From NCBI RefSeq assembly GCF_036507355.1, contig NZ_AP027877.1: DNA of 64,000 nt. One strand, given 5' to 3'. How positions within the stretch are numbered: position 1 is the first letter of the stretch; every line of letters begins with the position of its first letter. The translations under genes were made by a program, and so were the position numbers. Of this stretch, positions 4,940-56,296 are shown in pieces. This DNA is from Escherichia coli (GTDB taxonomy: Bacteria; Pseudomonadota; Gammaproteobacteria; Enterobacterales; Enterobacteriaceae). Below the pieces are notes generated by a model. The model saw only the letters and a program-made list of their open reading frames with translations, had not been told where the DNA came from and searched no databases.

Positions 4940-5678
4940 TGGAGCACCTCAAAAACACCATCATACACTAAATCAGTAAGTTGGCAGCATCACCAACTCT
5001 GTAATTCCTGGTGTGATATCCGTGACGGCAGGAATGGGAAGTACCGGTAAATCAAATACGGGTATGACATTCTTTTTCTTATTTATTACCCACGGTGGAG
5101 CGACAAGCAGCTCCGGCAACATATCCACAGTGGCATATTCACATTCTTCAGCTACTGGCAGCGGACGACATTCAGATAAGATGCCTGCCGCCTTAGCATT
5201 AACCCAGGGAATGACCTCGCATACTAACTCTGGCGTGGCGGTAATCAGTTTGACAAGCGCTTTACGCCACTCATTATTTTCATGTATTGCCAGCAAAGTA
5301 GCATAAGCGGCAATAGCCGCAGCGGGATGTTTTTGGCAGGCTTTGCTTAAGTATTCCAGGTGCTTTTTCTTGCCATTTACACCGAGGATCAGAATTTGAA
5401 TCGCATCCGGGTGATTCGTTTTCCATAGCCATTTGACAAGATTTTCAGTCTCGCTGATGCGTTCGAAGAGATAAGTGGGATTGTCAGAATGGTCTTCCGT
5501 AAACTAAAGAAGTATCCGGCTTACACCGCGCACCCCAGATACTGCTCTGAGTACAGTGGAAAAATACGATTTCCCACCGTTGTATCGTGATTTTCGTAAT
5601 TTTCGCGCTTATCTGGCAATGTTGTTGGCAAATAATGAGGTGTACTGGCAATAGCGGACACTACCATTTGTTCTTTTT

Positions 5679-6497: not shown

Positions 6498-6532
6498 CGC
6501 TTCAATGGGAAATTGTTGTCGCCATTGTTCGA

Positions 6533-6832
6533 TTAACGCGTATTTTTCAGCGACTCCTGTGCAAAATACGTTGCTTTTTTTAATATATCTCGCTCAAGGC
6601 GAGCTTCATTTAACGCCTTACGCAGTTGCAGAATTTCAGATTCCAGTTCAGCCACCGTGCGGGAACCAGGAGTACCGAGCCCTTTTCTGGCGGCGGTAAC
6701 CCATTGTCCTAAAGTGCCTTCAGGAAGAGATAATCGGGAAGCGCCTTCACTGATCGAAAGTTGATTTTCAAGAACCGTTCTGACAGCTTCGGCTTTGAAC
6801 TCTTTAGAGTAACGTTGGGTTTTTCTGCTCAT
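6533..6832 (-). CDS. IS3-family transposase OrfA (HTH/leucine-zipper part)
   Basis: 99-aa ORF MSRKTQRYSKEFKAEAVRTVLENQLSISEGASRLSLPEG... Confidence 0.85.
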   Translation of the reverse strand: MSRKTQRYSKEFKAEAVRTVLENQLSISEGASRLSLPEGTLGQWVTAARKGLGTPGSRTVAELESEILQLRKALNEARLERDILKKATYFAQESLKNTR

Positions 6833-7939
6833 TATTAGCTCCTTCTGATGCCATTCTATTTCAGGAAGGAGTGTCCGTTAAACTCAGGCTACCTCAATCA
6901 TCGGTTATCACCAGTCTTAACCAGGTCATCGCCGGGACGTTTTGGTCTGCATAGCGTAGAGCTATAGCATGGGCGATATCCGGGCGTTCAGGGAGCAGTA
7001 ACGCCGCAAAAGGTTGCCGTGCGGGGGATAGCGTCGGAATGGCGGTGAGTACTTTATCTACACAGCGTTGCCACTCATCTTCTGAAGCGAGTGAAAGATG
7101 ATGACATAGACGTTGATGCCAACTAGGTAGCGATTCTGCTTTGTGATTAGGTGGAATGATGGTGGTTACTGCGCCTTTTACTGGTTTATATTTGAGTTGA
7201 AGGGCAAAAAGGACGATTTCAACGGCGCTTTCCAGACCACAGCGAATGACTAAGTCATCGACCAGTTCATCTGCAGAGTAAGAGTTCCAAAAACTCCAGA
7301 GCAATGCTGCATCAGATTGCGCACTCCCTGTCTGTTGATTATCCAGAATTCGCCTTTGTAACTCAGCAAAAGCCTGCTGCCAGTTTTCAGGATAAGAGCG
7401 GTAATTGTTGTCGGGATCATATGCCCTGGTGTTATTCGCGATGCGTTGCCATATTTGACCATCTTTGTGCAGATAATTGATCTCTCTGGGGCGAGAACGA
7501 TGAGGAAAAGCAAATCGATTAATATCGCCAGTTATCGGAATGACTGCGTCATCAACCAGCCATGGGCGTTGGATTTTACTCTCAGGGGAAGATTCAACTT
7601 CAGGAGTGGCTTTGGTGATGGGGGGGATATGCACGTTTGCTGAAGCATTTTCTACATAGCCTTTTTTCGTTTTCTCTGCGATCAGCTTAAGCTTCGCTTT
7701 TTCCGCTGCTGCAACATCAGCAAAATTTTTTACCTGGCTTTGCCCTTGGGTACCAACTTTCCCCCAGCTGATATGCAACTCGTTTCCCTGCTGCTCCACC
7801 GCCCAGAATTTATGTGATTTTTCGTCCTGATAGATATAACTCTTCATCCGCGTTCCCTGTATTTATATCCAGTTATAAGCGGATGCTAGCAGTTAATGAA
7901 AAAAATTAAGAGCGTTGAACAAACAAGAAAACAACTTTA

Positions 7940-7976
7940 GGAATTTATAAAGAAAAGGCGCTGTCGATGCAGCGCC
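7940..7976 (-). terminator. Rho-independent terminator downstream of metG
   Basis: Hairpin GGCGCTG-TCGATG-CAGCGCC at 7957..7976, followed on the minus strand by TTTTCTTTAT. Confidence 0.55.
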
Positions 7977-7987
7977 TTGAAGGGGGA

Positions 7988-10021
7988 TTATTTCACCTGA
8001 TGACCCGGTTTAGCACCGGCATCCGGGCTTAGCAGGAAGATATCTTTCCCGCCAGGACCGGCAGCCATCACCATGCCCTCAGAGATACCGAAGCGCATTT
8101 TACGTGGTGCCAGGTTAGCCACCATAATGGTGTGACGACCAATCAGTGCCTGCGGATCCGGGTAGGCAGAACGAATGCCAGAGAAGACATTGCGTTTTTC
8201 ACCGCCGAGATCCAGCGTCAGGCGCAGCAGTTTGTCAGAACCTTCAACAAACTCTGCGTTTTCAATAAGCGCCACGCGCAGGTCAACTTTAGCGAAGTCG
8301 TCAAAGGTGATGGTTTCCTGAATCGGATCATCTGCCAGTGGGCCAGTAACTGGCGCGGCAGCTGCTTTCACTTCTTCTTTAGACGCTTCCACCAGTGCTT
8401 CAACCTGCTTCATATCGATGCGGTTATACAGCGCTTTGAACGGATTCACTTTGTGGCCCAGCAGAGGTTGCTGGATACCATCCCAGGTCAGTTCTGTATT
8501 GAGGAATGCTTCTGCGCGCTCGGTCAGTTTCGGCAGTACCGGCTTCAGGTAAGTCATCAGCACGCGGAACAGGTTGATGCCCATTGAGCAAATCGCCTGC
8601 AGGTCAGCATCGCGGTCTTCCTGTTTTGCCACCACCCACGGAGCCTGTTCATCGACATAGCGGTTAGCCAGATCAGCCAGCGCCATGATTTCGCGCACTG
8701 CTTTACCAAATTCGCGGCTTTCCCACGCTTCACCAATCACTTCAGCGGCATCAGTGAAGGTTTTGTACAACTGCGGGTCAGCCAGTTCGCTTGCCAGCAC
8801 ACCGTCAAAACGCTTGTTGATAAAGCCCGCATTACGAGAGGCCAGGTTAACCACTTTGTTAACGATATCAGCATTCACGCGCTGAACGAAATCTTCCAGG
8901 TTGAGATCGATATCATCAATGCGCGAAGAGAGTTTCGCAGTGTAGTAGTAACGCAGGCTGTCGGCGTCAAAATGATTCAGCCAGGTGCTGGCTTTAATAA
9001 AGGTACCGCGAGACTTAGACATCTTCGCGCCGTTCACCGTCACATAGCCATGAACAAACAGGTTGGTCGGCTTGCGGAAGTTGCTGCCTTCCAGCATTGC
9101 TGGCCAGAACAGACTGTGGAAGTAAACAATATCTTTACCGATGAAGTGGTACAGCTCGGCGGTGGAGTCTTTCTTCCAGTATTCATCGAAGCTTACGCTG
9201 TCGCCGCGCTTGTCGCACAGATTCTTGAAAGAACCCATATAGCCAATCGGCGCATCTAGCCAGACGTAGAAATATTTACCCGGCGCGTTCGGAATTTCAA
9301 AACCGAAGTACGGCGCGTCGCGGGAGATATCCCACTGTTGCAGGCCAGATTCAAACCACTCCTGCATTTTATTTGCCACCTGCTCCTGCAACGCACCGCT
9401 GCGGGTCCATGCCTGCAACATTTCGCTGAAAGAGGGCAGATCAAAGAAGAAGTGTTCAGAATCACGCATTACCGGCGTAGCGCCAGAAACCACCGATTTC
9501 GGCTCGATCAATTCAGTCGGGCTGTAGGTCGCGCCGCAGACTTCGCAGTTATCGCCGTATTGATCCGGGGATTTACATTTCGGGCAGGTGCCTTTTACAA
9601 AACGGTCCGGCAGGAACATGCCTTTTTCCGGATCGTACAGCTGAGAGATGGTGCGGTTTTTAATAAAACCGTTTTCTTTCAGGCGAGAGTAGATAAGTTC
9701 TGACAACTGGCGGTTCTCTTCGCTGTGCGTCGAGTGATAGTTGTCATAGCTGATGTTAAAGCCTGCGAAATCAGTCTGATGCTCCTGACTCATTTCGCCA
9801 ATCATCTGCTCCGGGGTGATACCCAGCTGCTGAGCTTTCAGCATGATCGGTGTACCGTGGGCATCGTCGGCGCAGATGAAGTTGACCTCGTGGCCGCGCA
9901 TTCGCTGGTAACGGACCCAGACATCAGCCTGGATGTGCTCCAGCATATGGCCGAGGTGGATTGAGCCGTTAGCGTACGGCAGTGCGCACGTCACCAGAAT
10001 TTTCTTCGCGACTTGAGTCAT
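7988..10021 (-). CDS. metG: Methionine--tRNA ligase
   Basis: 677-aa product from [31 protein letters not shown] (HIGH motif), KMSKS present, C-terminal tRNA-binding domain. The ORF track's start 3 codons upstream (MPTM) is probably an over-extension. Confidence 0.95.
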
Positions 10022-10152
10022 AGTAGGCATTACTTCTTAATAGTGAAAAGGGGTTAGATAGTACCAAATGGGAAAATGTTAAGTAAGTACTTCTCTATAT
10101 TCTTCAGGTAAACTATCAGCTGATGGTTTATCTATACAAAAAAGGAGTCGGG

Positions 10153-11262
10153 ATGAACGAACAATCCCAGGCCAAATCACCAGAAGCCTTGCGCGCAATG
10201 GTCGCCGGGACACTGGCCAATTTTCAGCACCCAACCCTGAAGCATAACCTCACCACGCTGAAAGCGTTGCACCATGTCGCCTGGATGGACGACACGTTGC
10301 ATGTGGAACTGGTTATGCCATTCGTCTGGCATAGCGCGTTTGAAGAGTTAAAAGAGCAATGTAGCGCCGAACTGCTGCGTATCACCGGGGCGAAAGCTAT
10401 CGACTGGAAACTGTCGCACAATATCGCCACCTTAAAACGCGTGAAGAATCAGCCAGGTATTAATGGCGTGAAGAACATCATTGCGGTCAGTTCCGGTAAA
10501 GGCGGCGTGGGTAAATCCTCCACGGCGGTAAACCTGGCGCTGGCACTGGCGGCGGAAGGGGCGAAAGTCGGCATTCTGGACGCCGATATCTACGGTCCAT
10601 CAATTCCCACCATGCTGGGCGCAGAAAATCAGCGTCCAACTTCGCCGGACGGTACCCATATGGCACCGATTATGTCTCATGGCCTGGCAACCAATTCAAT
10701 TGGTTATCTGGTCACTGACGACAATGCGATGGTGTGGCGTGGACCGATGGCGAGCAAGGCGTTAATGCAGATGTTGCAGGAAACCTTGTGGCCGGATCTC
10801 GACTATCTGGTGCTTGATATGCCGCCAGGCACCGGTGACATTCAATTGACGCTGGCGCAAAACATTCCAGTAACTGGTGCAGTCGTGGTCACCACCCCGC
10901 AGGACATCGCGTTGATCGATGCGAAAAAAGGCATTGTGATGTTCGAGAAAGTCGAGGTTCCGGTGCTCGGTATTGTCGAGAACATGAGTGTGCATATTTG
11001 CAGTAACTGTGGTCACCATGAACCGATTTTCGGTACCGGTGGTGCAGAGAAACTGGCTGAAAAATACCATACACAGCTGCTGGGGCAGATGCCGTTACAC
11101 ATCTCCTTACGTGAGGATCTCGATAAAGGCACGCCAACGGTTATCAGCCGTCCGGAGAGCGAATTTACCGCTATCTACCGCCAGCTGGCTGACCGCGTTG
11201 CAGCTCAGCTCTACTGGCAGGGTGAAGTCATTCCAGGCGAGATTTCCTTCCGCGCGGTCTAA
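10153..11262 (+). CDS. apbC: Fe-S cluster carrier ATPase ApbC/Mrp
   Basis: 369 aa from MNEQSQAKSPEALRAM; P-loop GKGGVGKSST and CxxC (CSNCGHHE). ORF-track start 10123 is an upstream in-frame extension. Confidence 0.9.
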   Translation: MNEQSQAKSPEALRAMVAGTLANFQHPTLKHNLTTLKALHHVAWMDDTLHVELVMPFVWHSAFEELKEQCSAELLRITGAKAIDWKLSHNIATLKRVKNQPGINGVKNIIAVSSGKGGVGKSSTAVNLALALAAEGAKVGILDADIYGPSIPTMLGAENQRPTSPDGTHMAPIMSHGLATNSIGYLVTDDNAMVWRGPMASKALMQMLQETLWPDLDYLVLDMPPGTGDIQLTLAQNIPVTGAVVVTTPQDIALIDAKKGIVMFEKVEVPVLGIVENMSVHICSNCGHHEPIFGTGGAEKLAEKYHTQLLGQMPLHISLREDLDKGTPTVISRPESEFTAIYRQLADRVAAQLYWQGEVIPGEISFRAV

Positions 11263-11523
11263 CGCCTATTAACCATTCTGGTTATTCTTCATACACCGCA
11301 GAGATGTTACATTGATGCGGTGTATTTGTTTTTGCCGCATTAATGAACACTTATTTAATACTGCGAATATTCTGCGGACCTTCGTCCGAAACTCTACAAA
11401 GTCGATTGATCGTACAGGCAGTGCTTCATTATCATCCTTCGTGCTGTGTAGTGGATGTACAGCTATAGTTTGTTATGCACTCATTCTATCCAGGCATAAC
11501 CTTTACTACAGGGATAACGTTCA

Positions 11524-11805
11524 ATGAATAAGTATTGGCTGTTAGGAATTATTTTTCTTGCCTATGGATTGGCTTCTCCCGCGTTCTCTTCAGAGACTGC
11601 CACATTAACGATTAATGGCAGGATCAGCCCCCCAACATGCAGTATGGCTATGGTTAATAGTCAACCTCAACAGCATTGTGGTCAGTTAACGTATAATGTC
11701 GATACCCGTCATCAGGTTTCTTCGCCCGTCAAAGGTGTAACGACAGAAGTGGTTGTTGCAGGTAGTGATAGCAAACGTCGAATCGTGTTAAATCGCTACG
11801 ATTAA
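11524..11805 (+). CDS. yehE: Small secreted protein YehE
   Basis: 93-aa ORF with N-terminal signal peptide; position between apbC and the yeh fimbrial operon as in K-12. Confidence 0.75.
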   Translation: MNKYWLLGIIFLAYGLASPAFSSETATLTINGRISPPTCSMAMVNSQPQQHCGQLTYNVDTRHQVSSPVKGVTTEVVVAGSDSKRRIVLNRYD

Positions 11806-12097
11806 TTTGGCAACCTGATTTTAATTGCATTTAGAAAGCCGAAATCATTTATATAAATGATTTCGGCTTTTTTATTGATATCAACAATACCATTTACATA
11901 AATCTACATTAATTAATAGATGCGATAAATATTTAATACTCTTAAGTATTTGTTGTATTTATATTACAATGGTTAATTTGTTTTAAATCAATAAAACAAT
12001 ATGTTTACATTGCGGCAACTTTTTTGATGTGAGAAATTTGTTTCCAAGAGATACATACTCTTAACAACCAAAAATAAATTTTATTAAGGAACATATT

Positions 12098-12640
12098 ATG
12101 AAACGTTCAATTATTGCTGTCGCTGTCTTTTCTTCTTTTTTTATGAGCGCTGGAGTATTTGCTGCAGACGTTGATACCGGAACATTAACTATTAAAGGGA
12201 ATATTGCAGAATCTCCGTGTAAATTCGAAGCGGGTGGTGATTCAGTAAGTATTAATATGCCGACTGTACCAACCACTGTCTTTGAAGGTAAAGCTAAATA
12301 TTCTACCTATGATGATGCAGTCGGTGTAACCAGCAGCATGTTAAAAATTAGCTGCCCGAAAGAAGTTGCTGGTGTAAAACTCTCGTTGATTACCAACGAT
12401 AAAATAACTGGCAACGATAAGGCGATAGCCAGTAGCAACAATACCGTGGGTTACTATCTCTATTTAGGTGATAACAGCGAAGTCCTGGATGTTTCTGCAC
12501 CTTTTAATATTGAGAGTTATAAAACAGCGGAAGGTCAATATGCTATTCCGTTTAAAGCAAAATACCTGAAACTGACAGATAACTCAGTGCAATCAGGTGA
12601 TGTGTTATCTTCTCTGGTTATGCGTGTGGCGCAGGATTAA
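12098..12640 (+). CDS. yehD: Fimbrial major subunit (chaperone-usher family)
   Basis: 180 aa with signal peptide MKRSIIAVAVFSSFFMSAGVFA and fimbrial-subunit character; AT-rich upstream region. Confidence 0.85.
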   Translation: MKRSIIAVAVFSSFFMSAGVFAADVDTGTLTIKGNIAESPCKFEAGGDSVSINMPTVPTTVFEGKAKYSTYDDAVGVTSSMLKISCPKEVAGVKLSLITNDKITGNDKAIASSNNTVGYYLYLGDNSEVLDVSAPFNIESYKTAEGQYAIPFKAKYLKLTDNSVQSGDVLSSLVMRVAQD

Positions 12641-12676
12641 TAAATAAAATTGCAAGTTTCTCCAGGTAATAAACAT

Positions 12677-12702
12677 GGCCGCTATCCCCATGGCGGCTTT
12701 TT
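12677..12702 (+). terminator. Weak intra-operon hairpin plus T-run between yehD and yehC (possible attenuator)
   Basis: GCCGC-loop-GCGGC followed by TTTTT, between the major subunit and chaperone genes. Confidence 0.3.
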
Positions 12703-12720
12703 AATTTAAGAGGCATTAAG

Positions 12721-13395
12721 ATGAAAGGATTATTATCTTTACTCATTTTTTCTATGGTCCTTCCTGCACATGCCGGAATTGTTATCTACGGGACGCGCAT
12801 TATTTACCCGGCAGAAAATAAAGAAGTTATGGTGCAGTTGATGAACCAGGGAAACCGTTCTTCGCTGCTGCAGGCGTGGATTGATGATGGCGATACGTCG
12901 TTACCACCAGAAAAAATTCAGGTTCCTTTCATGTTAACGTCACCAGTGGCAAAAATAGGGGCAAACTCCGGGCAGCAAGTAAAAATCAAAATTATGCCGA
13001 ATAAACTGCCCACTAATAAAGAAAGCATTTTTTATCTGAATGTTCTAGATATTCCACCAAATAGTCCAGAACAAGAAGGTAAGAATGCACTGAAGTTTGC
13101 GATGCAAAACAGAATCAAATTGTTTTACCGCCCGGCGGGTATTGCTCCGGTAAATAAAGTGACCTTTAAAAAGTTACTGGTAAATCGCAGTGGCAATGGA
13201 TTGGTGATAAAAAATGACTCAGCTAATTGGGTGACGATTTCGGATGTCAAAGCTAATAATGTTAAAGTCAATTATGAAACTATTATGATTGCCCCCTTAG
13301 AAAGTCAGAGTGTTAATGTCAAAAGTAATAATGCAAATAACTGGTATCTGACCATTATCGATGACCACGGCAACTATATTAGTGACAAAATTTAA
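12721..13395 (+). CDS. yehC: Periplasmic fimbrial chaperone (PapD-like)
   Basis: 224 aa with signal peptide; chaperone-like N-terminal region (GIVIYGTRIIYP). Confidence 0.85.
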   Translation: MKGLLSLLIFSMVLPAHAGIVIYGTRIIYPAENKEVMVQLMNQGNRSSLLQAWIDDGDTSLPPEKIQVPFMLTSPVAKIGANSGQQVKIKIMPNKLPTNKESIFYLNVLDIPPNSPEQEGKNALKFAMQNRIKLFYRPAGIAPVNKVTFKKLLVNRSGNGLVIKNDSANWVTISDVKANNVKVNYETIMIAPLESQSVNVKSNNANNWYLTIIDDHGNYISDKI

Positions 13396-15891
13396 TTGCA
13401 GGAGCTGCCTATGTTGAGAATGACCCCACTTGCATCAGCAATCGTAGCGTTATTGCTCGGCATTGAAGCTAATGCAGCTGAAGAAACCTTTGATACCCAT
13501 TTTATGATAGGTGGAATGAAAGACCAGCAGGTTGCAAATATTCGTCTTGATGATAATCAACCCTTACCGGGGCAGTATGACATCGATATTTATGTCAATA
13601 AGCAATGGCGCGGGAAATATGAGATCATTGTTAAAGACAACCCGCAAGAAACTTGTTTATCAAGGGAAATTATCAAGCGGTTAGGCATTAACACCGATAA
13701 CTTCGCCAGTGGAAAGCAATGTTTAACATTTGAGCAACTTGTTCAGGGTGGGAGCTATACCTGGGATATCGGGGTTTTTCGTCTCGATTTCAGTGTCCCG
13801 CAGGCCTGGGTGGAAGAACTGGAAAGTGGCTATGTTCCACCGGAAAACTGGGAGCGGGGTATTAATGCGTTTTATACCTCTTATTATGTGAGTCAGTATT
13901 ACAGTGACTATAGAGCGTCGGGTAATAGTAAGAGTACATATGTACGTTTTAACAGCGGGTTAAATTTACTGGGGTGGCAACTGCATTCTGATGCCAGTTT
14001 CAGTAAAACAAATAACAATCCAGGGGTGTGGAAAAGCAATACCCTGTATCTGGAACGTGGATTTGCCCAACTTCTCGGCACGCTTCGCGTGGGTGATATG
14101 TGCACATCAAGCGATATTTTTGATTCTGTTCGCTTCAGAGGTGTGCGGTTGTTTCGTGATATGCAGATGTTGCCTAACTCGAAACAAAATTTTACGCCAC
14201 GGGTGCAGGGGATTGCTCAGAGTAACGCGCTGGTAACTATTGAACAGAATGGTTTTGTGGTTTATCAGAAAGAGGTTCCTCCTGGCCCGTTTGCAATTAC
14301 AGATTTGCAGTTGGCTGGTGGTGGAGCAGATCTTGATGTCAGCGTGAAAGAGGCGGACGGTTCGGTAACCACCTATCTGGTGCCTTATGCAGCCGTGCCA
14401 AATATGCTGCAACCCGGCGTGTCGAAATATGATTTTGCGGCGGGTCGTAGCCATATTGAAGGGGCGAGCAAACAAAGTGATTTTGTCCAGGCGGGTTATC
14501 AGTATGGTTTTAATAACTTATTGACGCTGTATGGTGGCTCGATGGTCGCGAATAATTATTACGCGTTCACTTTGGGGACTGGCTGGAATACACGCATTGG
14601 TGCCATTTCCGTCGATGCCACGAAGTCGCATAGTAAACAAGACAACGGCGATGTGTTTGACGGGCAAAGTTATCAAATTGCCTACAACAAATTTGTGAGC
14701 CAAACGTCGACGCGTTTTGGTCTGGCGGCCTGGCGTTATTCGTCGCGTGACTACCGGACATTTAACGATCACGTTTGGGCAAACAATAAAGATAATTATC
14801 GCCGTGATGAAAACGATGTCTATGACATTGCCGATTATTACCAGAATGATTTTGGTCGCAAAAATAGCTTTTCCGCCAATATGAGCCAGTCATTGCCAGA
14901 AGGTTGGGGTTCTGTGTCATTAAGTACGTTATGGCGAGATTACTGGGGGCGTAGCGGCAGTAGTAAGGATTATCAGTTGAGTTATTCCAACAACCTGCGA
15001 CGGATAAGCTATACCCTCGCGGCAAGCCAGGCTTATGACGCGAATCATCATGAAGAGAAACGTTTTAATATTTTTATATCGATTCCCTTTGATTGGGGTG
15101 ATGACGTTTCGACGCCTCGTCGGCAAATATATATGTCTAACTCAACGACGTTTGATGATCAGGGGTTTGCCTCAAATAATACGGGATTATCAGGAACAGT
15201 AGGGAGTCGGGATCAGTTCAATTATGGTGTCAACCTGAGTCATCAACATCAGGGAAATGAAACGACAGCTGGAGCGAATTTAACCTGGAACGCGCCGGTG
15301 GCAACAGTGAATGGCAGTTATAGTCAGTCGAGTACTTATCGACAGGCTGGAGCCAGTGTTTCAGGGGGCATTGTCGCCTGGTCGGGTGGCGTTAATCTGG
15401 CGAACCGTCTTTCCGAAACGTTTGCTGTGATGAATGCGCCAGGAATTAAAGATGCTTATGTCAATGGGCAAAAATATCGCACAACAAACCGTAATGGAGT
15501 GGTGGTATACGACGGAATGACACCTTATCGGGAAAATCACCTGATGCTGGATGTGTCGCAAAGCGATAGCGAAGCAGAATTGCGCGGTAACCGGAGAATT
15601 GCCGCACCTTATCGCGGCGCGGTTGTACTGGTTAATTTTGATACCGATCAGCGCAAGCCCTGGTTTATAAAAGCGTTAAGAGCGGATGGGCAACCATTAA
15701 CGTTTGGTTATGAAGTCAATGATATCCACGGTCATAATATTGGCGTTGTCGGCCAGGGAAGTCAGTTATTTATTCGCACCAATGAAGTACCGCCATCGGT
15801 TAATGTAGCAATTAATAAGCAACAAGGACTTTCATGCACAATCACCTTCGGTAAAGAGATTGATGAAAGTAGAAATTATATTTGCCAGTAA
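13396..15891 (+). CDS. yehB: Outer-membrane fimbrial usher
   Basis: 831-aa ORF with usher-like length and composition. The true start may be the MLRMTPLASA Met at 13411. Confidence 0.9.
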   Translation: MQELPMLRMTPLASAIVALLLGIEANAAEETFDTHFMIGGMKDQQVANIRLDDNQPLPGQYDIDIYVNKQWRGKYEIIVKDNPQETCLSREIIKRLGINTDNFASGKQCLTFEQLVQGGSYTWDIGVFRLDFSVPQAWVEELESGYVPPENWERGINAFYTSYYVSQYYSDYRASGNSKSTYVRFNSGLNLLGWQLHSDASFSKTNNNPGVWKSNTLYLERGFAQLLGTLRVGDMCTSSDIFDSVRFRGVRLFRDMQMLPNSKQNFTPRVQGIAQSNALVTIEQNGFVVYQKEVPPGPFAITDLQLAGGGADLDVSVKEADGSVTTYLVPYAAVPNMLQPGVSKYDFAAGRSHIEGASKQSDFVQAGYQYGFNNLLTLYGGSMVANNYYAFTLGTGWNTRIGAISVDATKSHSKQDNGDVFDGQSYQIAYNKFVSQTSTRFGLAAWRYSSRDYRTFNDHVWANNKDNYRRDENDVYDIADYYQNDFGRKNSFSANMSQSLPEGWGSVSLSTLWRDYWGRSGSSKDYQLSYSNNLRRISYTLAASQAYDANHHEEKRFNIFISIPFDWGDDVSTPRRQIYMSNSTTFDDQGFASNNTGLSGTVGSRDQFNYGVNLSHQHQGNETTAGANLTWNAPVATVNGSYSQSSTYRQAGASVSGGIVAWSGGVNLANRLSETFAVMNAPGIKDAYVNGQKYRTTNRNGVVVYDGMTPYRENHLMLDVSQSDSEAELRGNRRIAAPYRGAVVLVNFDTDQRKPWFIKALRADGQPLTFGYEVNDIHGHNIGVVGQGSQLFIRTNEVPPSVNVAINKQQGLSCTITFGKEIDESRNYICQ

Positions 15892-15906
15892 TAGTCAGGT
15901 GGTTCT

Positions 15907-16941
15907 ATGAAAATTCGCATAATGCTATTTATATTAATGATGATGGTTATGCCTGTGAGCTATGCGGCATGTTATAGTGAGTTATCTGTTCAGCACAACT
16001 TGGTTGTTCAGGGGGATTTTGCACTTACTCAAACACAAATGGCGACATATGAGCATAATTTTAATGATTCGTCATGCGTGAGTACAAATACTATCACCCC
16101 TATGAGCCCGTCGGATATTATTGTTGGACTTTATAACGATACTATTAAATTAAATTTACATTTTGAATGGACCAATAAAAATAACATCACGTTGTCAAAT
16201 AATCAGACCAGTTTCACCAGTGGTTATTCGGTAACGGTGACACCTGCGGCCAGTAATGCAAAAGTGAATGTTTCTGCGGGGGGCGGCGGTTCAGTGATGA
16301 TTAATGGTGTTGCGACATTATCCAGTGCTTCATCATCGACACGCGGGAGTGCCGCAGTACAATTTCTACTGTGTTTATTAGGTGGCAAGTCATGGGATGC
16401 ATGTGTAAATAGCTACAGAAATGCATTGGCACAAAATGCAGGTGTCTATTCCTTTAATCTGACATTGTCATACAACCCGATAACCACAACCTGCAAACCG
16501 GACGATTTATTAATTACTTTAGACAGTATTCCCGTTTCACAATTACCAGCCACAGGTAACAAAGCAACAATAAATAGTAAAAAAGAGGATATTATTCTGC
16601 GTTGTAAAAATTTATTAGGTCAACAAAATCAAACATCACGGAAAATGCAGGTGTATTTATCAAGTACTGACTTGTTAACCAACAGCAACACAATACTGAA
16701 AGGTGCGGAAGATAATGGCGTAGGATTTATTCTTGAAAGTAATGGTTCGCCAGTCACACTTTTAAATATCACTAACAGCAGTAAAGGATACACAAATTTA
16801 AAAGAAATTGCGGCAAAGTCAAAACTTACAGATACAACGGTTTCAATTCCGATAACAGCCAGTTACTACGTCTACGATACAAACAAAGTTAAATCTGGCG
16901 CACTGGAGGCAACCGCATTAATCAACGTGAAATACGACTAA
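15907..16941 (+). CDS. yehA: Fimbrial adhesin-like protein
   Basis: 344 aa with signal peptide; last gene of the yehDCBA chaperone-usher cluster. Confidence 0.85.
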   Translation: MKIRIMLFILMMMVMPVSYAACYSELSVQHNLVVQGDFALTQTQMATYEHNFNDSSCVSTNTITPMSPSDIIVGLYNDTIKLNLHFEWTNKNNITLSNNQTSFTSGYSVTVTPAASNAKVNVSAGGGGSVMINGVATLSSASSSTRGSAAVQFLLCLLGGKSWDACVNSYRNALAQNAGVYSFNLTLSYNPITTTCKPDDLLITLDSIPVSQLPATGNKATINSKKEDIILRCKNLLGQQNQTSRKMQVYLSSTDLLTNSNTILKGAEDNGVGFILESNGSPVTLLNITNSSKGYTNLKEIAAKSKLTDTTVSIPITASYYVYDTNKVKSGALEATALINVKYD

Positions 16942-16996
16942 TAACAAGCAAGACGAGCAAGTGGCTAATAATAAAAAATAACAAGGTGTCTGCATT

Positions 16997-17024
16997 TCCC
17001 CCTCATGATGAGGGGGCTTTTTTT
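16997..17024 (+). terminator. Rho-independent terminator after yehA
   Basis: Hairpin CCCCCTCATGATGAGGGGG followed by CTTTTTTT. Confidence 0.7.
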
Positions 17025-17361
17025 AGCGATGATAAAAAATCTCACCGTCGTAGGCTTTAATGATTTTTCCGTCGGTATTATTGATCAGCACATATGCACC
17101 GCCCATATAGGTCCAGTGGGTTCCGGCGTCAGGTGCGGGCAGGTTACGCAACTGCCACTGCTTAATGTTGTACTCATCGGTACGGTACATCTCTGGTACG
17201 GTGTCACCTGGTTTGAAATGCTTGAAGTCAGCAATGAAGCTGCTTAACTCATACTTTGAAATTCCCGAGGCATTGGTCGAACCCGCGGTGGCTGGTGCGG
17301 CCCATGCTGCGCTGGTTACCAGCAAAAGCGCACCCAGCAACATCTTATTTTTTATGGTCAT
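17023..17361 (-). CDS. rcnB: Periplasmic Ni/Co homeostasis protein RcnB
   Basis: 112 aa from MTIKNKMLLGALLLVTSAAWAAP (signal peptide). The ORF-track frame extends further upstream, but this Met is the start consistent with the signal peptide. Confidence 0.85.
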   Translation of the reverse strand: MTIKNKMLLGALLLVTSAAWAAPATAGSTNASGISKYELSSFIADFKHFKPGDTVPEMYRTDEYNIKQWQLRNLPAPDAGTHWTYMGGAYVLINNTDGKIIKAYDGEIFYHR

Positions 17362-17622
17362 ATACTCTCCACTTTGGGGATCAGTAAAATCAGTCGTATA
17401 TCTTTCCCGCCATACAATATAACCGACAAGAGATATTTTGTTAGTGATCCCGTGATTTCGTAAAAAGTGTAAATGAAAGGATGTAGCAAAAGCATCCTCA
17501 TTGAGCGAGAAGTGAGCGGAATAAGCTGATTTAAGAATCATCCTGGGCTAAAAGGATAGCGAAGCCCGGTGATGCTGCCAACTTACTGATTTAGTGTATG
17601 ATGGTGTTTTTGAGGTGCTCCA

Positions 17623-17898
17623 GTGGCTTCTGTTTCTATCAGCTGTCCCTCCTGTTCAGCTACTGACGGGGTGGTGCGTAACGGCAAAAGCACCGCCGGA
17701 CATCAGCGCTATCTCTGCTCTCACTGCCGTAAAACATGGCAACTGCAGTTCACTTACACCGCTTCTCAACCCGGTACGCACCAGAAAATCATTGATATGG
17801 CCATGAATGGCGTTGGATGCCGGGCAACAGCCCGCATTATGGGCGTTGGCCTCAACACGATTTTACGTCACTTAAAAAACTCAGGCCGCAGTCGGTAA
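17623..17898 (+). CDS. insA: IS1 InsA
   Basis: Identical 91-aa InsA. Confidence 0.9.
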
Positions 17899-18320
17899 CC
17901 TCGCGCATACAGCCGGGCAGTGACGTCATCGTCTGCGCGGAAATGGACGAACAGTGGGGCTATGTCGGGGCTAAATCGCGCCAGCGCTGGCTGTTTTACG
18001 CGTATGACAGGCTCCGGAAGACGGTTGTTGCGCACGTATTCGGTGAACGCACGATGGCGACGCTGGGGCGTCTTATGAGCCTGCTGTCACCCTTTGACGT
18101 GGTGATATGGATGACGGATGGCTGGCCGCTGTATGAATCCCGCCTGAAGGGAAAGCTGCACGTAATCAGCAAGCGATATACGCAGCGAATTGAGCGGCAT
18201 AACCTGAATCTGAGGCAGCACCTGGCACGGCTGGGACGGAAGTCGCTGTCGTTCTCAAAATCGGTGGAGCTGCATGACAAAGTCATCGGGCATTATCTGA
18301 ACATAAAACACTATCAATAA
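17817..18320 (+). CDS. insB: IS1 InsB
   Basis: Identical 167-aa InsB. Confidence 0.9.
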
Positions 18321-18355
18321 GTTGGAGTCATTACCGCGAAGCCCAGGTGATTGTT

Positions 18356-19189
18356 TTATCTCATAATACCCATAAAGCCATGCACTCCCATATACACCCC
18401 GACTAAACCAATTAACAGACTGGAAAAATAGGGGGCGCGTTTAGCGAGAGTGTTAAATCCGCTCCAGCGTTTTGCAACTTGTTGAACACTGATTGCCGCT
18501 CCAACGCCTACTGTAACCAGCGTTAATGCCAGGCCGATGCTGAAACTGACGACCAGTGTTGCGCCCAGTGTCAGGGCTTTCAACTGAATGCAAATCAATA
18601 GCACGGTAATTGCTGCCGGGCAGGGAATAAGGCCACCTGTTAAGCCAAATAACAAAATTTGCCAGTTGGTGACCTCTCTACCATCAAAGCGTCGTTTAAT
18701 GTCATTGGCATGGGCTCGTGCATGGGCATCCTGATACTCTTCGTTGTCGCCATGTTCATGATGGTGATGATGTTCGTGGTCGTGGTCTTGATGATGTTCG
18801 TGATCGTGATGATGGTGATCATGCCCGTACATATTCTCCAGCCAGTTGCGTTCGCCGCGCCAGGTACGCCAGAACATCCAGAAAGCGGTGCTAATAATGA
18901 TCACTGCGGAAATCAACTGGAGCCACGGTTCTGCTGATTGAGCAGTAAAGCGCTTGCTGATCACCATCCCGCCAAAGGCAATCAACCAGACCACTGCGGT
19001 ATGCGAAATGGTTGCTGCCAGTCCGAGCATCACCGCCTGTTTAATGGTGCCTTTGATGGCGATGATAAACGCCGCCATCATCGTTTTTGAGTGCCCTGGT
19101 TCCAGGCCATGAAGCGCACCAAGTAAGATGGCGCTGGGGATGAAGAACCAGGCGTTTCCTTGCTGAAGAAGAGTTGTAAATTCGATCAT
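18356..19189 (-). CDS. rcnA: Nickel/cobalt efflux transporter RcnA
   Basis: 277 aa, multi-pass membrane protein with His-rich loop (HDHHHHDHEHHQDHDHEHHHHHEHGD). Confidence 0.95.
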   Translation of the reverse strand: MIEFTTLLQQGNAWFFIPSAILLGALHGLEPGHSKTMMAAFIIAIKGTIKQAVMLGLAATISHTAVVWLIAFGGMVISKRFTAQSAEPWLQLISAVIIISTAFWMFWRTWRGERNWLENMYGHDHHHHDHEHHQDHDHEHHHHHEHGDNEEYQDAHARAHANDIKRRFDGREVTNWQILLFGLTGGLIPCPAAITVLLICIQLKALTLGATLVVSFSIGLALTLVTVGVGAAISVQQVAKRWSGFNTLAKRAPYFSSLLIGLVGVYMGVHGFMGIMR

Positions 19190-19309: not shown

Positions 19310-19582
19310 ATGTCTCATACAATCCGTGATAAACAGAAACTGAAAGCGCGTGCCAGTAAGATTCAGGGCCAGGTCGTGGCGCTCAAGAAAATGCTCGACG
19401 AGCCGCACGAATGCGCTGCAGTTTTACAACAGATTGCTGCTATCCGTGGCGCGGTAAACGGTCTGATGCGGGAAGTGATTAAAGGTCATCTAACGGAACA
19501 TATCGTTCACCAGGGGGATGAGCTAAAACGTGAAGAAGATCTGGATGTTGTTCTGAAGGTGCTGGATTCTTATATCAAATGA
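19310..19582 (+). CDS. rcnR: Ni/Co-responsive repressor RcnR (CsoR/RcnR family)
   Basis: 90-aa [64 protein letters not shown]. Confidence 0.95.
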
Positions 19583-19691
19583 AAGTGCCTAATATGGCCG
19601 TAGTTGAGGCAATAAATAGAGGGACAAGTGACGTTAAGCTGAATTAGAGTAAATGGCGTGAGGACACACGCCATTCGAGGTTATAGTTTGA

Positions 19692-20006
19692 TTAATTTTC
19701 GAAAAATTGCTTCACAGCCCAGCCACCATGACCACCTGGAGTTATGAATGAAACAAAACCTTTGTCATCTACGCTCTGGATTTCTACCGTCATTGATTCA
19801 TCTAACACGCGACATTTATTGGATGTAATGAGACTCAGCATAGCCTGTTGGTCATTGTCCAGGATGTAACTGATCATCTCGTAAAAGTCAGTTAACTTTT
19901 TACAGTTAAATGTACCTTCTTTAAGTGTTGCGCTGTCTCCGTGACTTAGTGCGAATGCATTTGGCATCATTGCCACAAAGATGACGGTAACGAGTAGTTT
20001 TTTCAT
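19692..20006 (-). CDS. Hypothetical small secreted protein (two Cys), accessory
   Basis: 104-aa ORF; N-terminal signal peptide MKKLLVTVIFVAMMPNAFA; I recognise no family. Confidence 0.5.
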   Translation of the reverse strand: MKKLLVTVIFVAMMPNAFALSHGDSATLKEGTFNCKKLTDFYEMISYILDNDQQAMLSLITSNKCRVLDESMTVEIQSVDDKGFVSFITPGGHGGWAVKQFFEN

Positions 20007-20015
20007 TTTAGCCTC

Positions 20016-20363
20016 TTATAATTCAGAACATTCACTGATGTTGTAAGTGCCTTTTCTACCATCATCGTTTACGAGATGTAGCACGAAGATGATGGGATTG
20101 GCATCAATGAAAGATACAGAGACGTTCCCGCTTTCGGTGCTATACATCTTTGCAATCTGTTTTTCACCAATATATGAGAGATCCCAACTCACTCCGTTCA
20201 AGCTAAAATGCATCTGTTTGCCGACAATATCGATGGAGGATTGTGCCGTAACGGTTTTCCCATTGCTGCCAATTTGACCCTGCTGAAGAGCATCACATTT
20301 ATAGGAGCTTGCATAAGTAGATAGAGGTAGTAGCAGAAGTGCAGCAAAAATTTTACTCTTCAT
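20016..20363 (-). CDS. Hypothetical small secreted protein (Cys near both ends of mature chain), accessory
   Basis: 115-aa ORF; signal peptide MKSKIFAALLLLPLSTYA; lies 9 bp upstream of the preceding ORF on the same strand. Confidence 0.5.
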   Translation of the reverse strand: MKSKIFAALLLLPLSTYASSYKCDALQQGQIGSNGKTVTAQSSIDIVGKQMHFSLNGVSWDLSYIGEKQIAKMYSTESGNVSVSFIDANPIIFVLHLVNDDGRKGTYNISECSEL

Positions 20364-21414
20364 ATTTTCCCTTTGCTTGGATTTGAGTTACCTATTTTGG
20401 GGTAGTCATTATAAAACTATTAATTAGTAAAACGAACAAGTTTTCATTTGTTTAGCAATGGTATTGTTTAGGTTTGAAATTATTACGTATTTTCATAGCA
20501 ATAGATTGGATAAACAGCAGTTCAGGGAACAAGTTGCACTATCTACATACTTTTCCGCTTTCCATTGCATGTTAGGTAATAGATAGCCTTTGCCCGTAAG
20601 ACTAAAAATATTAGAAATGACTCATTCGAATACCTTCTATTCACCTTAATATAGGTTTGATTATTGTAATCGTTTAATGTGTCTTATGGATTTTTTCCTA
20701 CTTTTCATTTGCATAATATAGGGGGCACAGCATGCTCTTGAAATTAATTATTAAAATATTTAAATTTTACAGCACACAACTACTTTTCGTTGTCTTATGT
20801 GTTGAACGTACTTCGAGTATAGGTAGGGTTGTATATATATTGCGTGGGTAGAGTTAGAATAGAGGAAGCATCATTTATAGAATATTCAAGAACGTTAGCC
20901 TGTGATCAATAAATAAAAATATCAAATGGTGTTCAAACATATTTTTCTATGAAAAATCCAGCCATCTATGATGAATTTTTAGATCCATTTTAATTAAAGT
21001 ATGATTATGAACCAAGATTTAGCCAAGAATGGTGGTATAGCGCGTATCCAATGACACCGGAAAACGCATCTATGAAGTCCTTATTTATCTCTATAAGAGG
21101 AAATCAACACTAATAAAATGTAGTGATGTAACATATCGAGCAGGTTGCTCTGATGCTGGTCTTCAACTGTGGCTTAAACAGCTATCAAACTTCGGTGTTA
21201 TTGAGATGAAAGAATTATCATTCTCAACTATCAATCTCAAAAAGCTAGAGAAAATAGACCTTAATTATTCCACTCTCTAAATTTATCTATTTATTTAAAG
21301 TAAAAATGAAAATATTATGGTATCAGCCACGTGGTGGTAACTGGTTTTTATGATCATAGGTACATATACAGGGAACCCTGGAAAACGAAAGTAATATATT
21401 GATGATTTCGTTTG

Positions 21415-21654
21415 TTATAACTTCGTGGTATCAAGTCCGGCGGCTTTGAGTCGCTCGGTAAGATTTCTCATTTTGCTGAACTCTGTAGCAAAGCTGGCTT
21501 TAAGTCCTACACCTTCGCAAAACTCTTTTGCCGTGACGTTTTTCAGATGGTCAGCGTATTTGATCATCTGGAGGTGCATTTCCATCGTTTGGCTATTTCG
21601 TGGTGCGCTGCTAATGGCTTGCTTAATGTTCTCGTAGATCTGGGTTTCTGTCAT
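21415..21654 (-). CDS. Hypothetical small protein, possible HTH DNA-binding
   Basis: ORF-track frame 21415..21672; an internal Met (MTETQIYEN...) is preceded by GGTGAG at suitable spacing. The segment AKEFCEGVGLKASFATEFSKM looks helix-turn-helix-like. Sits at the edge of an AT-rich islet. Confidence 0.4.
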   Translation of the reverse strand: MTETQIYENIKQAISSAPRNSQTMEMHLQMIKYADHLKNVTAKEFCEGVGLKASFATEFSKMRNLTERLKAAGLDTTKL

Positions 21655-21852
21655 TTTTATCTCACCTATCAAATTTAGATAAATAATATAAATTAGCTAA
21701 TTAAGATAGTCTACAGTTTTTACCACCTGAATGATGGGTGTGAATTGTTTCTTTTTCATTACTGATATGGGGTACACAGTGAAGACGTAATGAATGGATG
21801 CGAGCTTGCATCTGCAAGTCACTTCCCCTAATCTGGCACAAAATATAGAGAT

Positions 21853-21987
21853 TCAACCAAACGACTCGGGGTGCCCTTCTGCGTGAAGGCTGAGAAATAC
21901 CCGTATCACCTGATCTGGATAATGCCAGCGTAGGGAAGTCACGGACCACCAGGTCATTGCTTCTTCACGTTATGGCAGGAGCAAACT
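21853..21987 (+). promoter_or_regulatory. TPP (THI-box) riboswitch in the thiM leader
   Basis: CTCGGGGTGCCCTTCTGCGTGAAGGCTGAGAAATACCCGTATCACCTGATCTGGATAATGCCAGCGTAGGGAA directly upstream of the thiM start. Confidence 0.9.
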
Positions 21988-22776
21988 ATGCAAGTCGACC
22001 TGCTGAGTTCCGTGCAATCTGCGCACACGTTACACCTTTTTCACCAACATTCCCCTCTTGTGCATTGCATGACCAACGATGTGGTGCAAACCTTTACTGC
22101 CAATACCTTGCTGGCGATCGGTGCATCGCCAGCGATGGTTATCGAAACCGAAGAGGCCAGTCAGTTTGCGGCTATCGCCAGTGCCTTGTTGATTAACGTT
22201 GGCACACTGACGCAGCCACGCGCACAGGCGATGCGTGCTGCCGTTGAGCAAGCAAAAAGCTCTCAAACACCCTGGACGCTTGATCCAGTAGCGGTTGGTG
22301 CGCTCGATTATCGCCGCCATTTTTGTCATGAACTTTTATCTTTTAAACCGGCAGCGATACGTGGTAATGCTTCGGAAATCATGGCATTAGCTGGCGTTGC
22401 TAATGGTGGACGGGGAGTGGATACCACTGACGCCGCAGCTAACGCGATACCCGCTGCACAAACACTGGCACGGGAAACTGGCGCAATCGTCGTGGTCACT
22501 GGCGAGGTGGATTATGTTACCGATGGCCATCGCGCCGTTGGCATTCACGGTGGCGATCCGTTAATGACCAAAGTGGTAGGAACTGGCTGTGCATTATCGG
22601 CGGTTGTCGCTGCCTGCTGTGCGTTACCAGGCGATACGCTGGAAAATGTCGCATCTGCCTGTCACTGGATGAAACAAGCCGGAGAGCGCGCAGTCGCCAG
22701 AAGCGAGGGGCCAGGCAGTTTTGTTCCACATTTCCTTGATGCGCTCTGGCAATTGACGCAGGAGGTGCAGGCATGA
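21988..22776 (+). CDS. thiM: Hydroxyethylthiazole kinase
   Basis: 262-aa ORF; 4-bp overlap with thiD. Confidence 0.95.
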
Positions 22777-23573
22777 AACGAATTAACGCTCTGACGATTG
22801 CCGGTACTGATCCGAGTGGTGGTGCGGGGATTCAGGCCGATCTTAAAACCTTCTCGGCACTTGGCGCTTATGGTTGCTCAGTTATTACTGCACTGGTGGC
22901 GCAAAATACCCGTGGCGTACAGTCGGTGTATCGCATTGAGCCTGATTTTGTCGCCGCCCAGCTCGATTCGGTGTTCAGCGATGTGCGAATCGATACCACT
23001 AAAATCGGTATGTTGGCGGAAACCGATATTGTTGAAGCGGTGGCAGAACGGTTGCAACGTTATCAGATCCAAAACGTGGTACTCGACACCGTTATGCTGG
23101 CAAAAAGCGGCGACCCACTGCTTTCACCTTCGGCAGTTGCCACGCTACGCAGTCGATTATTGCCACAGGTTTCATTAATAACGCCAAACTTGCCCGAAGC
23201 AGCCGCCTTACTCGACGCGCCACACGCGCGCACCGAACAGGAAATGCTGGAACAAGGGCGATCGCTGTTGGCGATGGGCTGTGGCGCAGTGCTAATGAAA
23301 GGTGGTCATCTGGATGATGAGCAAAGCCCGGACTGGCTGTTTACCCGCGAGGGTGAACAACGGTTTACCGCACCGCGCATTATGACCAAAAACACCCACG
23401 GCACTGGTTGTACACTCTCTGCGGCGTTGGCTGCACTACGCCCGCGCCATACAAACTGGGCTGACACCGTACAGGAGGCAAAAAGCTGGCTTTCATCGGC
23501 GTTAGCCCAGGCCGACACGCTGGAAGTTGGTCACGGTATTGGTCCGGTTCACCACTTCCACGCCTGGTGGTGA
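22773..23573 (+). CDS. thiD: Hydroxymethylpyrimidine/phosphomethylpyrimidine kinase
   Basis: 266-aa ORF, translationally coupled to thiM. Confidence 0.95.
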
Positions 23574-54747: not shown

Positions 54748-54771
54748 GCCTGCCACGGTAATGACTCCAAC

Positions 54772-56246: not shown

Positions 56247-56296
56247 TGGAGCACCTCAAAAACACCATCATACACTAAATCAGTAAGTTGGCAGCA

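Follow-up and report, generated by a model that had tools for sequence, protein, structure and literature searches.

A simple IS1 insertion between rcnA and rcnB of Escherichia coli and its possible effect on metal-inducible rcnB expression

IS1 is polar in both orientations, and rho mutations relieve this polarity, as is known from the classical gal and lac literature. Within the rcn locus, yohN (rcnB) is reported to be cotranscribed with rcnA (Bleriot 2011). In E. coli, rcnR and rcnAB form a divergon (PMC7689651), and RcnR acts at the promoter ahead of rcnA to block the transcription of both RcnA and RcnB, its operator motif being TACT-G6-N-AGTA (PMC7105576). A preliminary description of the DNA studied here had held that rcnAB are co-transcribed in K-12, which is in agreement with a literature that has rcnB under the RcnR-controlled rcnA promoter (PMC7689651, PMC7105576). 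A knockout of rcnB shows lower Co (PMC7917058), and the same paper cites Bleriot 2011 for an enhanced Ni/Co resistance upon rcnB deletion. The published deletion phenotype is more efflux and resistance together with less metal accumulation, and this qualifies the effect to be expected of an insertion. As for IS1, its termini are reported to carry an outward half-promoter (PMC5526668, PMC8764528); for the terminal 50 bp of the 5' terminus this half-promoter was demonstrated by experiment and depended on the adjacent 20 bp (PMC5526668). Published effects of IS1 on neighbouring genes extend from a 7-log2 increase to a 2-log2 decrease and include no change at all (PMC8764528).

We analysed a 64,000 nt (64 kb) stretch of E. 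coli DNA, here called the window, which holds the following elements of an rcn locus.

17023..17361, minus strand: rcnB (yohN), 112 aa, intact, with its ATG at 17361; PF11776:RcnB on the identical protein, homologue annotated as rcnB in RefSeq
18356..19189, minus strand: rcnA, Ni/Co efflux protein, 277 aa, intact; full-length match to NCBIfam NF007454, 560.7 bits
19227..19261, rcnR-rcnA divergent promoter region: two RcnR operator boxes (TACT-G6-N-AGTA on the complementary strand), intact
19310..19582, plus strand: rcnR, Ni/Co-responsive repressor, 90 aa, intact; NCBIfam equivalog NF011613, 197.3 bits (cut-off 138)

The order is that of an rcn locus, with rcnR divergent from rcnA, rcnB behind rcnA, and yehA beside them, syntenic with annotated E. 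coli loci. [quoted passage not shown] Both operators are present, TACTCCCCCCCAGTA at 19227 and TACTACCCCCCAGTA at 19247. An ORF of 172 aa over rcnB is longer only through mechanical extension upstream; the protein itself starts with the ATG at 17361. IS elements are dense in the window: IS1 is present four times, and two distinct complete IS3-family elements are accompanied by a partial copy of one of the two. This density and the island on the rcnR side, which matches O157:H7 at 99.5%, had raised the suspicion of a Shigella origin. That origin was rejected, because the exact sequences of RcnA (BED21819.1 / WP_338388266.1) and YehA (BED21816.1) are recorded as E. coli.

One of the IS1 copies, copy B, lies between rcnA and rcnB. 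Its parts and immediate borders are as follows.

17568..18335, plus strand: IS1 copy B, complete, from its identity with the other copies in the window and its terminal repeats
17568-17590: IRL, GGTGATGCTGCCAACTTACTGAT
17623..17898, plus strand: insA, ORF of 91 aa, NCBIfam transpos_IS1 model positions 1-81 and the IS1/IS1595 zinc-binding domain
17817..18320, plus strand: insB' frame, ORF of 167 aa, NCBIfam transpos_IS1 NF033558, 145.6 bits (cut-off 100), model positions 75-199
17874..17880, plus strand: A6C programmed -1 frameshift motif at the insA/insB' junction
18313-18335: IRR, reverse complement of GGTAATGACTCCAACTTATTGAT
17559..17567: target-site duplication, copy 1, GCGAAGCCC, abutting the IRL end
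18336..18344: target-site duplication, copy 2, GCGAAGCCC, abutting the IRR end

With a length of 768 bp and imperfect terminal inverted repeats of 23 bp, IRL GGTGATGCTGCCAACTTACTGAT and IRR GGTAATGACTCCAACTTATTGAT matching at 18 of 23 positions, the element has the dimensions of the IS1 family (about 768 bp, repeats of about 23 bp); it also shows overlapping insA and insB' frames on the plus strand, the A6C -1 frameshift site and a transposase match. Copy B shares its entire sequence with the other three IS1 copies of the window, and a single nt sets it apart from the IS1A-type copy of E. coli CUWW10. Its intact state and its identity with the other three are consistent with an active element. 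The element is antisense to rcnAB, with the IRL end facing rcnB; it starts 20 nt past the rcnA stop codon and ends 206 nt before the rcnB ATG, so that the untranslated gap of 217 nt has become one of 994 nt by the addition of 777 bp. The physical separation of rcnB from rcnA and its RcnR-controlled promoter, which the preliminary description had pointed out, is thereby confirmed.

Copy B arrived by simple transposition into the rcnA-rcnB spacer. With both strands of the 64-kb window counted, the 9-mer GCGAAGCCC occurs only twice, both times directly at an end of the element; the duplication noticed earlier is correct in every coordinate (17559..17567 and 18336..18344), and its 9-mer is unique to these two places. 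By calculation, two given 9-mers are identical by chance with a probability of 4^-9, or about 4e-6. A direct target duplication of 9 bp is what the IS1 family produces, and the empty site with a single copy is present in other genomes. When the IS1 and one 9-mer were removed, a spacer of 217 bp was obtained, and five complete E. coli genomes match this restored site at 100% over 400 bp. It is because of this match that the transposition, also called simple in the preliminary description, can be regarded as such. Among 5,363 genomes with a match, 5,355 carry the site without interruption.

We regard it as extremely improbable that copy B is instead an assembly artefact, belongs to a composite IS1 transposon or is a scar left where IS1-IS1 recombination caused an inversion or deletion. 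Such non-simple structures do occur nearby, as copies A and D lack a target duplication, C and D stand in tandem, and A and B are mutually inverted at a distance of 12.6 kb. However, copy B has the perfect 9-bp duplication at both of its ends, and on either side the sequence runs collinear with other E. coli. Furthermore, A and B lack the matching outer flanks that a composite transposon requires, and an apparent 6-nt extension of the inverted repeat formed by A and B is only a partial match of 4 nt (CAGAAG versus GCGAAG). A composite transposon or an A-B inversion is thus effectively refuted by the duplication, the flanks and the empty-site match.

The insertion looks recent, since the IS1 copies are identical, RcnB is intact and of a common allele, the nearest relative found has an empty site and the junction is absent from the collections searched; this agrees with the age suspected at first. 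The exact IS1/spacer junction was not found among 5,426 complete E. coli genomes, the GTDB species representatives and metagenome contigs, in a search collection that excludes the source genome of the window. An exact-protein look-up of RcnA in the collection likewise returned no contig. The closest relative found (L017) shows a single mismatch over 3.1 kb, and its site is empty. The RcnB protein is a very common allele with exact matches in 1,653 collection blocks, and all ten places listed for it have the empty spacing. Within the databases searched, the insertion is confined to this strain, and we consider it a real but ordinary strain-specific event.

The spacer itself has structure. Folding of the empty-allele RNA places a 13-bp stem behind the rcnA stop codon, with an energy of about -19.7 kcal/mol over the first 70 nt. 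The target GCGAAGCCC, which starts 11 nt past this stop codon, forms the apex, and the two arms now stand apart.

17536..17549, minus strand: 3' arm of the stem-loop, parted from the 5' arm (RNA fold of the empty allele)
18340..18352, minus strand: 5' arm of the stem-loop, still joined to the rcnA 3' end (RNA fold)

The stem is strong only in the spacer allele of the window type, as judged by comparison of alleles. As a repeated or conserved element it was rejected: the window holds no second copy of it, and the K-12-type allele does not preserve its 5' arm. The 130 nt of the spacer proximal to rcnB are highly conserved. No known RNA family was found in the spacer at E<=1. An NtrC-binding peak in the spacer from rcnA to rcnB has been listed by a gSELEX study (PMC8743547); a sigma-54 promoter behind this peak was considered and rejected, as the spacer holds no GG-N10-GC motif.

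What the insertion does to rcnB can be proposed from the arrangement of the locus. Transcripts from the RcnR-controlled rcnA promoter would now face 994 nt of untranslated RNA where there had been 217 nt, including about 300 nt of C-rich and G-poor antisense IS1 RNA, for which we found a C/G ratio of 1.3-1.6. Rho-dependent polarity would stop most of them short of rcnB, and the Ni/Co-inducible expression of rcnB would therefore be expected to fall, the induction of rcnA remaining unaffected. A weak terminator-like hairpin is also found inside IS1 (17708-17694, minus strand). Any rcnB expression that remains would be supplied by local promoters independent of metal, with one or both of the following sites as candidates.

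17553..17581, minus strand: hybrid promoter-like site TTGGCA-17-TATCCT, reading towards rcnB (consensus scan, 9/12 matches)
17416..17444, minus strand: native promoter-like site CTAACA-17-TATATT, in the conserved part of the spacer between IS1 and rcnB (consensus scan, 9/12 matches)

The predicted phenotype under metal stress is a lower accumulation of Ni/Co with equal or higher tolerance and no sensitivity, because published rcnB deletions increase the RcnA-dependent efflux. A simple IS1 insertion whose polarity lowers Ni/Co-inducible rcnB, with local promoters supplying the remainder, is the reading that we favour and hold to be probable, if by no means certain.

The hybrid site also permits a different reading, in which the promoter is rewired. 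A sigma-70 promoter formed by the IRL and the flank would then express rcnB constitutively, independent of RcnR and metal and at least at the level of the uninduced wild type, so that RcnB would precede the induction of RcnA and damp efflux. The geometry is that of a hybrid promoter (a -35 in the IS1 end that reads outward, and a -10 in the flank at a distance of 16-18 nt): the -35 TTGGCA lies within the IRL, the spacing is 17 nt, and the predicted -10 TATCCT has the form TAnnnT. Among eight IS1 IRL junctions examined, this holds for the rcnA-rcnB junction only. The experimental half-promoter of the IS1 5' end speaks for this reading as well, as do the documented hybrid promoters of afaA (PMC8764528) and of bla TEM and acrEF, the latter two as given in Table 1 of PMC9330008. 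However, the -10 shares just 4 of 6 positions with the consensus and lacks an extended TG, and the putative start would lie upstream of the residual hairpin, with about 190 nt left to the rcnB ATG. An equally good hybrid site is expected by chance at 5.7% of random positions; within the spacer, 17 of the 217 positions would offer one. The region holds 5 promoter-like sites, not above the chance expectation of 3.9 +/- 2.0, and in the spacer region promoter-like and terminator-like sites together are no more numerous than in shuffled sequence. We consider such a rewiring unlikely. With the published deletion phenotype and the two promoter-like sites in view, rcnB may be decoupled from metal control rather than silenced.

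Other genomes also carry IS elements at this place. Across E. coli, six independent IS events were found in the spacer, while rcnB itself and the final codons of rcnA have each received one more. Upstream of the rcnB ATG, IS1 is found at 35, 90, 148, 206 and 212 nt, and an IS3-family element at about 105 nt. CUWW10, HUE1, AREA_497 and the L018 type have an IS1 in the same spacer, while L013-L015 carry an IS3-family element of 1,229 bp. Even the IS1 of CUWW10, in the same orientation, is 6 bp away from the site of copy B. As the positions and target duplications differ, and sometimes also the orientation or the IS family, these are separate events. It is a curiosity that two different IS events occur within one clade that is identical over 5 kb.

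Such recurrence might be taken as a sign of selection, the uncoupling of rcnB by polarity and/or a hybrid promoter being adaptive in retuning the RcnA-dependent efflux of Ni/Co. We regard this as very unlikely. A hot spot or convergent selection was rejected, as the 5,426 complete genomes yield 3 spacer hits of IS1, where about 2.5-2.8 would be expected (calculated for uniform insertion from about 58-64 thousand chromosomal IS1 places); this is no enrichment. The seemingly uniform orientation, with the IRL towards rcnB, was rejected as a trace of promoter selection, being an artefact of queries that contain the IRL; the mirror query found the opposite orientation in AREA_497 and KH_005. The apparent clustering is fully explicable by the abundance of IS1 across thousands of genomes and the orientation bias of the queries.

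The same count, close to the uniform expectation, would also suit a neutral passenger, with rcnB adequately expressed from its own promoter in the conserved spacer or by read-through, and with no measurable change. The IS-rich window, with its four IS1 and two complete and one partial IS3-family elements, fits this view, as does the conserved promoter-like site upstream of rcnB. Because the 130 nt next to rcnB are highly conserved and the NtrC gSELEX peak is listed in the spacer (PMC8743547), rcnB may already own promoter activity, and the insertion could be nearly silent. However, in the K-12 literature rcnB is transcribed from the rcnA promoter under RcnR (PMC7689651, PMC7105576), and 777 bp of extra untranslated, C-rich antisense RNA are a typical setting for Rho-dependent polarity. 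A neutral passenger appears rather doubtful to us.

If the favoured polarity is real, the strain is a natural regulatory variant in which RcnA is metal-induced and the periplasmic modulator RcnB is not. It would be a ready genetic background to study the function of RcnB, the mechanism of which is still described as unknown, and an example of the uncoupling of an operon by an IS element. If it is not, the insertion adds another IS1 to a genome already rich in IS elements and serves mainly as a strain marker.

Compared with simple insertions of the IS1A/IS1R type, copy B has the same length, ends, frameshift and 9-bp duplication and differs only in its location. The classical polar IS1 insertions in gal and lac (1968-1976) likewise stand between promoter-proximal and promoter-distal genes and add a long untranslated stretch; however, they are in a coding region, whereas copy B is in an intercistronic spacer that already was 217 bp long, and here polarity is inferred. 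The IS1 hybrid promoters of bla TEM-1 (Prentki 1986), Salmonella acrEF (Olliver 2005), afaA in ST131 (PMC8764528) and the p0-tetA reporter (PMC5526668) share with the rcnB site the layout of an outward -35, 17 nt and TAnnnT. In those cases raised expression was selected or shown, whereas the rcnB site is a match to the consensus such as 5.7% of random positions would also provide. The engineered K-12 deletion of rcnB (yohN; Bleriot et al. 2011, PMC7917058) would resemble our case in that RcnB is reduced or removed with RcnA and RcnR functional, and it gives the expected direction: more efflux, less Ni/Co accumulation and higher resistance. Unlike in that deletion, rcnB is intact here and possibly expressed locally, so that the insertion would at most be a regulatory hypomorph or a decoupling. 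In the rcn locus of Salmonella, rcnB is outside the control of the RcnR-regulated rcnA promoter (PMC7689651), and IS1 may have created a similar state in this E. coli strain, although in Salmonella the uncoupling is the native architecture and is not derived from an insertion.

The preliminary description had placed an IS1 with a perfect 9-bp duplication between rcnA and rcnB, and its coordinates for both turned out to be exact. The element is copy B of the four IS1 elements in the window (copies A to D) and is located in the following context:

17023-17361, minus strand: rcnB, 112 aa
17559-17567: first copy of the target-site duplication, GCGAAGCCC, adjoining IS1 copy B
17568-18335: IS1 copy B, complete, 768 bp
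17568-17590: its terminal inverted repeat IRL, GGTGATGCTGCCAACTTACTGAT, facing rcnB
17623-17898, plus strand: insA ORF, matching an NCBIfam IS1 transposase model
17817-18320, plus strand: ORF of the insB' frame, matching an NCBIfam IS1 transposase model
17874: A6C frameshift motif
18313-18335: its terminal inverted repeat IRR
18336-18344: second copy of the duplication, GCGAAGCCC, adjoining IS1 copy B
18356-19189, minus strand: rcnA, 277 aa (NF007454, 560.7 bits)
19227 and 19247: two RcnR boxes
19310-19582, plus strand: rcnR (equivalog match, 197.3 bits)

The 9-mer abuts both IS1 ends and occurs nowhere else on either strand of the 64-kb window; two given 9-mers are calculated to be identical by chance with a probability of about 4e-6. 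Deletion of copy B and one 9-mer in silico restored a 217-bp spacer, and 400 bp centred on this reconstructed empty site are found with 100% identity in the complete genomes of five E. coli (PapRG-06-5, Z1322HEC0005, JNEC-KY204, UCPROB-001 and UCPROB-002). On either side of it the sequence runs collinear with other genomes. Copy B has a duplication of its own and its outer flank does not match that of copy A, which rules out a composite transposon as well as an inversion between two IS1 copies. The structural interpretation as a simple transposition is thus supported. It was probably also recent, as had been suggested: all four IS1 copies are identical, the site is empty in the closest relative recovered (locus L017, one mismatch in 3.1 kb), and none of 5,426 complete E. 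coli genomes, nor the GTDB species-representative genomes and metagenome contigs searched, contains the exact junction. In 5,355 of 5,363 matching genomes the insertion site is uninterrupted.

Read in the rcn sense, the spacer starts with TAA-AACAATCACCT-GGGCTTCGC, the target 9-mer beginning 11 nt past the rcnA stop codon. In the predicted fold of the first 70 nt (about -19.7 kcal/mol) a 13-bp stem-loop (AATCACCTGGGCT...AGCCCAGGaTGATT) has this 9-mer at its apex, and copy B separates its two arms (window 18340-18352 with 17536-17549). The predicted stem is strong in the window-type spacer allele only and weak in the K-12-type, because the 5' arm differs there. No Rfam family matched within the spacer, nor is the stem-loop repeated elsewhere in the window. 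The structure, which the IS1 destroys, may help to form the 3' end of the rcnA mRNA or to stabilise it. The rcnB-proximal 130 nt of the spacer are highly conserved in both alleles; its GC content is 40%, versus 49% in the neighbouring sequences.

All three genes, rcnA, rcnB and rcnR, and the RcnR operators are intact in the window. A 172-aa ORF at rcnB was dismissed as a mechanical extension of the 112-aa gene, and the RcnB protein, with PF11776 present, is a very common allele, identical in 1,653 collection blocks. Bleriot et al. reportedly found in 2011 that rcnA and yohN (rcnB) are co-transcribed. E. coli has an rcnR-rcnAB divergon (PMC7689651), in which RcnR acts at the promoter ahead of rcnA to block transcription of both RcnA and RcnB (PMC7105576). 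Copy B lies antisense to rcnAB and extends the untranslated distance between the rcnA stop and the rcnB ATG from the former 217 nt to 994 nt. Across ~300 nt the antisense IS1 RNA added in this way is rich in C and poor in G (C/G 1.3-1.6), as expected of Rho loading sites, and contains a weak terminator-like hairpin (17708-17694, minus strand). From classical genetics, IS1 is polar in either orientation in a Rho-dependent manner. Given the longer untranslated C-rich RNA, the hairpin and this polarity, Ni/Co-inducible transcription of rcnB would be reduced, with normal induction of rcnA. Metal-independent transcription of rcnB could still come from two local promoter-like sites:

17581-17553: hybrid site, outward -35 TTGGCA of IRL, 17 nt, flank hexamer TATCCT
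17444-17416: native-like site, CTAACA-17-TATATT

An equally good hybrid is expected at 5.7% of random positions, and promoter-like sites are no more numerous in this region than in shuffled sequence. Strains deleted for rcnB accumulate less Co/Ni and are more resistant (PMC7917058, citing Bleriot 2011), so the phenotype to be predicted would be more efflux, not sensitivity. The earlier expectation that altered rcnB expression would change Ni/Co efflux is, judged from the sequence, plausible.

Upstream, yehB and yehA on the plus strand match annotated E. coli loci. The exact RcnA (BED21819.1) and YehA (BED21816.1) sequences are recorded as E. coli from a single contig, so that the source is taken to be an IS-rich E. 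coli and not a Shigella; RcnA varies in length among strains (274, 277, 281, 283 and 285 aa) via a histidine-rich loop (window 18700-18830), and this exact 277-aa variant is on record for one contig only. The convergent genes yehA and rcnB have between them a strong GC-rich hairpin with a T-run behind it (16998-17016, CCCCCTCATGATGAGGGGG CTTTTTTT), which is likely to be the yehA terminator and may work in both directions. From rcnR to thiM (19590-23200) the window has additional genes, among them small ORFs (104 and 115 aa) and a gene annotated as an outer membrane protein. These genes are absent for instance from CUWW10 and LR-03, where rcnR is directly followed by the TPP riboswitch and thiM. 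Only 331 of 5,426 genomes cover this region at ≥80%, the best matches (99.5%) including O157:H7 strains.

Copies C (54757-55524) and D (55534-56301) form an identical direct tandem on the minus strand (region 54748-56310). The 9-mer GCCTGCCAC precedes C and recurs between C and D, and the far flank of D, CTTCCTTGA, is different. From its sequence the arrangement reads as an insertion of C into the 9 bp immediately next to the IRR end of a D copy that was already there and lacks its own duplication. The outer flanks of the tandem are contiguous in no complete E. coli genome searched; therefore a rearrangement or deletion would also be involved. Alternatively, the tandem may be an assembly artefact. 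Copy A (4227-4994, minus strand), among DUF4132 (yehH/yehI-like) genes, has no target-site duplication (flanks ...CTTCTTCTG and AACTCTGTA...); the ~1.8-5.8 kb of additional DNA that the best-matching genomes have across window 1-17567 suggests an IS1-associated deletion. An IS3-family element at ~5.6-6.9 kb (5600-6960, minus strand; OrfA 99 aa, OrfB 272 aa) has a 519-nt identical, inverted partial copy at 53602-54120, and a 1,229-bp IS3-family element lies at 57618-58846. The region 53.6-58.8 kb is an IS nest.

Other E. coli loci carry IS elements in this spacer or in the adjoining parts of rcnA and rcnB (distances from the rcnB ATG):

CUWW10 (L001): IS1 at 212 nt, orientation as in the window, duplication GCCTAAAGG
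HUE1 (L022): IS1B at 90 nt, duplication AGTGATCCC
AREA_497: IS1B at 148 nt, opposite orientation, no duplication, Tn3/IS26 DNA beyond
KH_005: IS1 within the last rcnA codons, opposite orientation
LR-03: IS1 within rcnB, orientation as in the window, duplication AACTCATAC
L018/L021: IS1 at 35 nt, orientation as in the window (L018)
L013-L015, L019, L020: 1,229-bp IS3-family element at ~105 nt, transposase ORFs on the minus strand

LR-03 is probably one of a group of mcr-1 E. coli obtained from healthy people living in Ecuador and Vietnam (PMC10621974). The IS3-family element of L014 is 99.9% identical to that at 57618-58846, and L013-L021 have exactly the YehA allele of the window. Altogether, loci L001, L002, L013-L015 and L018-L024 represent at least six independent insertions in the 217-bp spacer, one more in rcnB and another in the rcnA 3' end. 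No enrichment indicative of a hot spot or selection was seen among the 5,426 complete genomes, with three IS1 matches in the spacer against ~2.5-2.8 expected if ~58-64 thousand chromosomal IS1 places are spread uniformly. Two different insertions inside one clade identical over 5 kb are weak evidence for either. Shared orientation was discarded as a signal, as it came from IRL-containing queries and a mirror query gave opposite-orientation cases. In both CUWW10 and HUE1 another IS1 lies within or at yehA and lacks a duplication (L001:1089-1856; L022:1057-1824). An ST131 study also names yehA as one of the genes interrupted by IS1 (PMC8764528), and disruption of the yeh fimbrial locus seems to be frequent. 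Reported effects of IS1 on adjacent genes comprise strong activation, repression or none (PMC8764528). Insertions of this kind are very well known, and that of IS1 copy B is one not described before.
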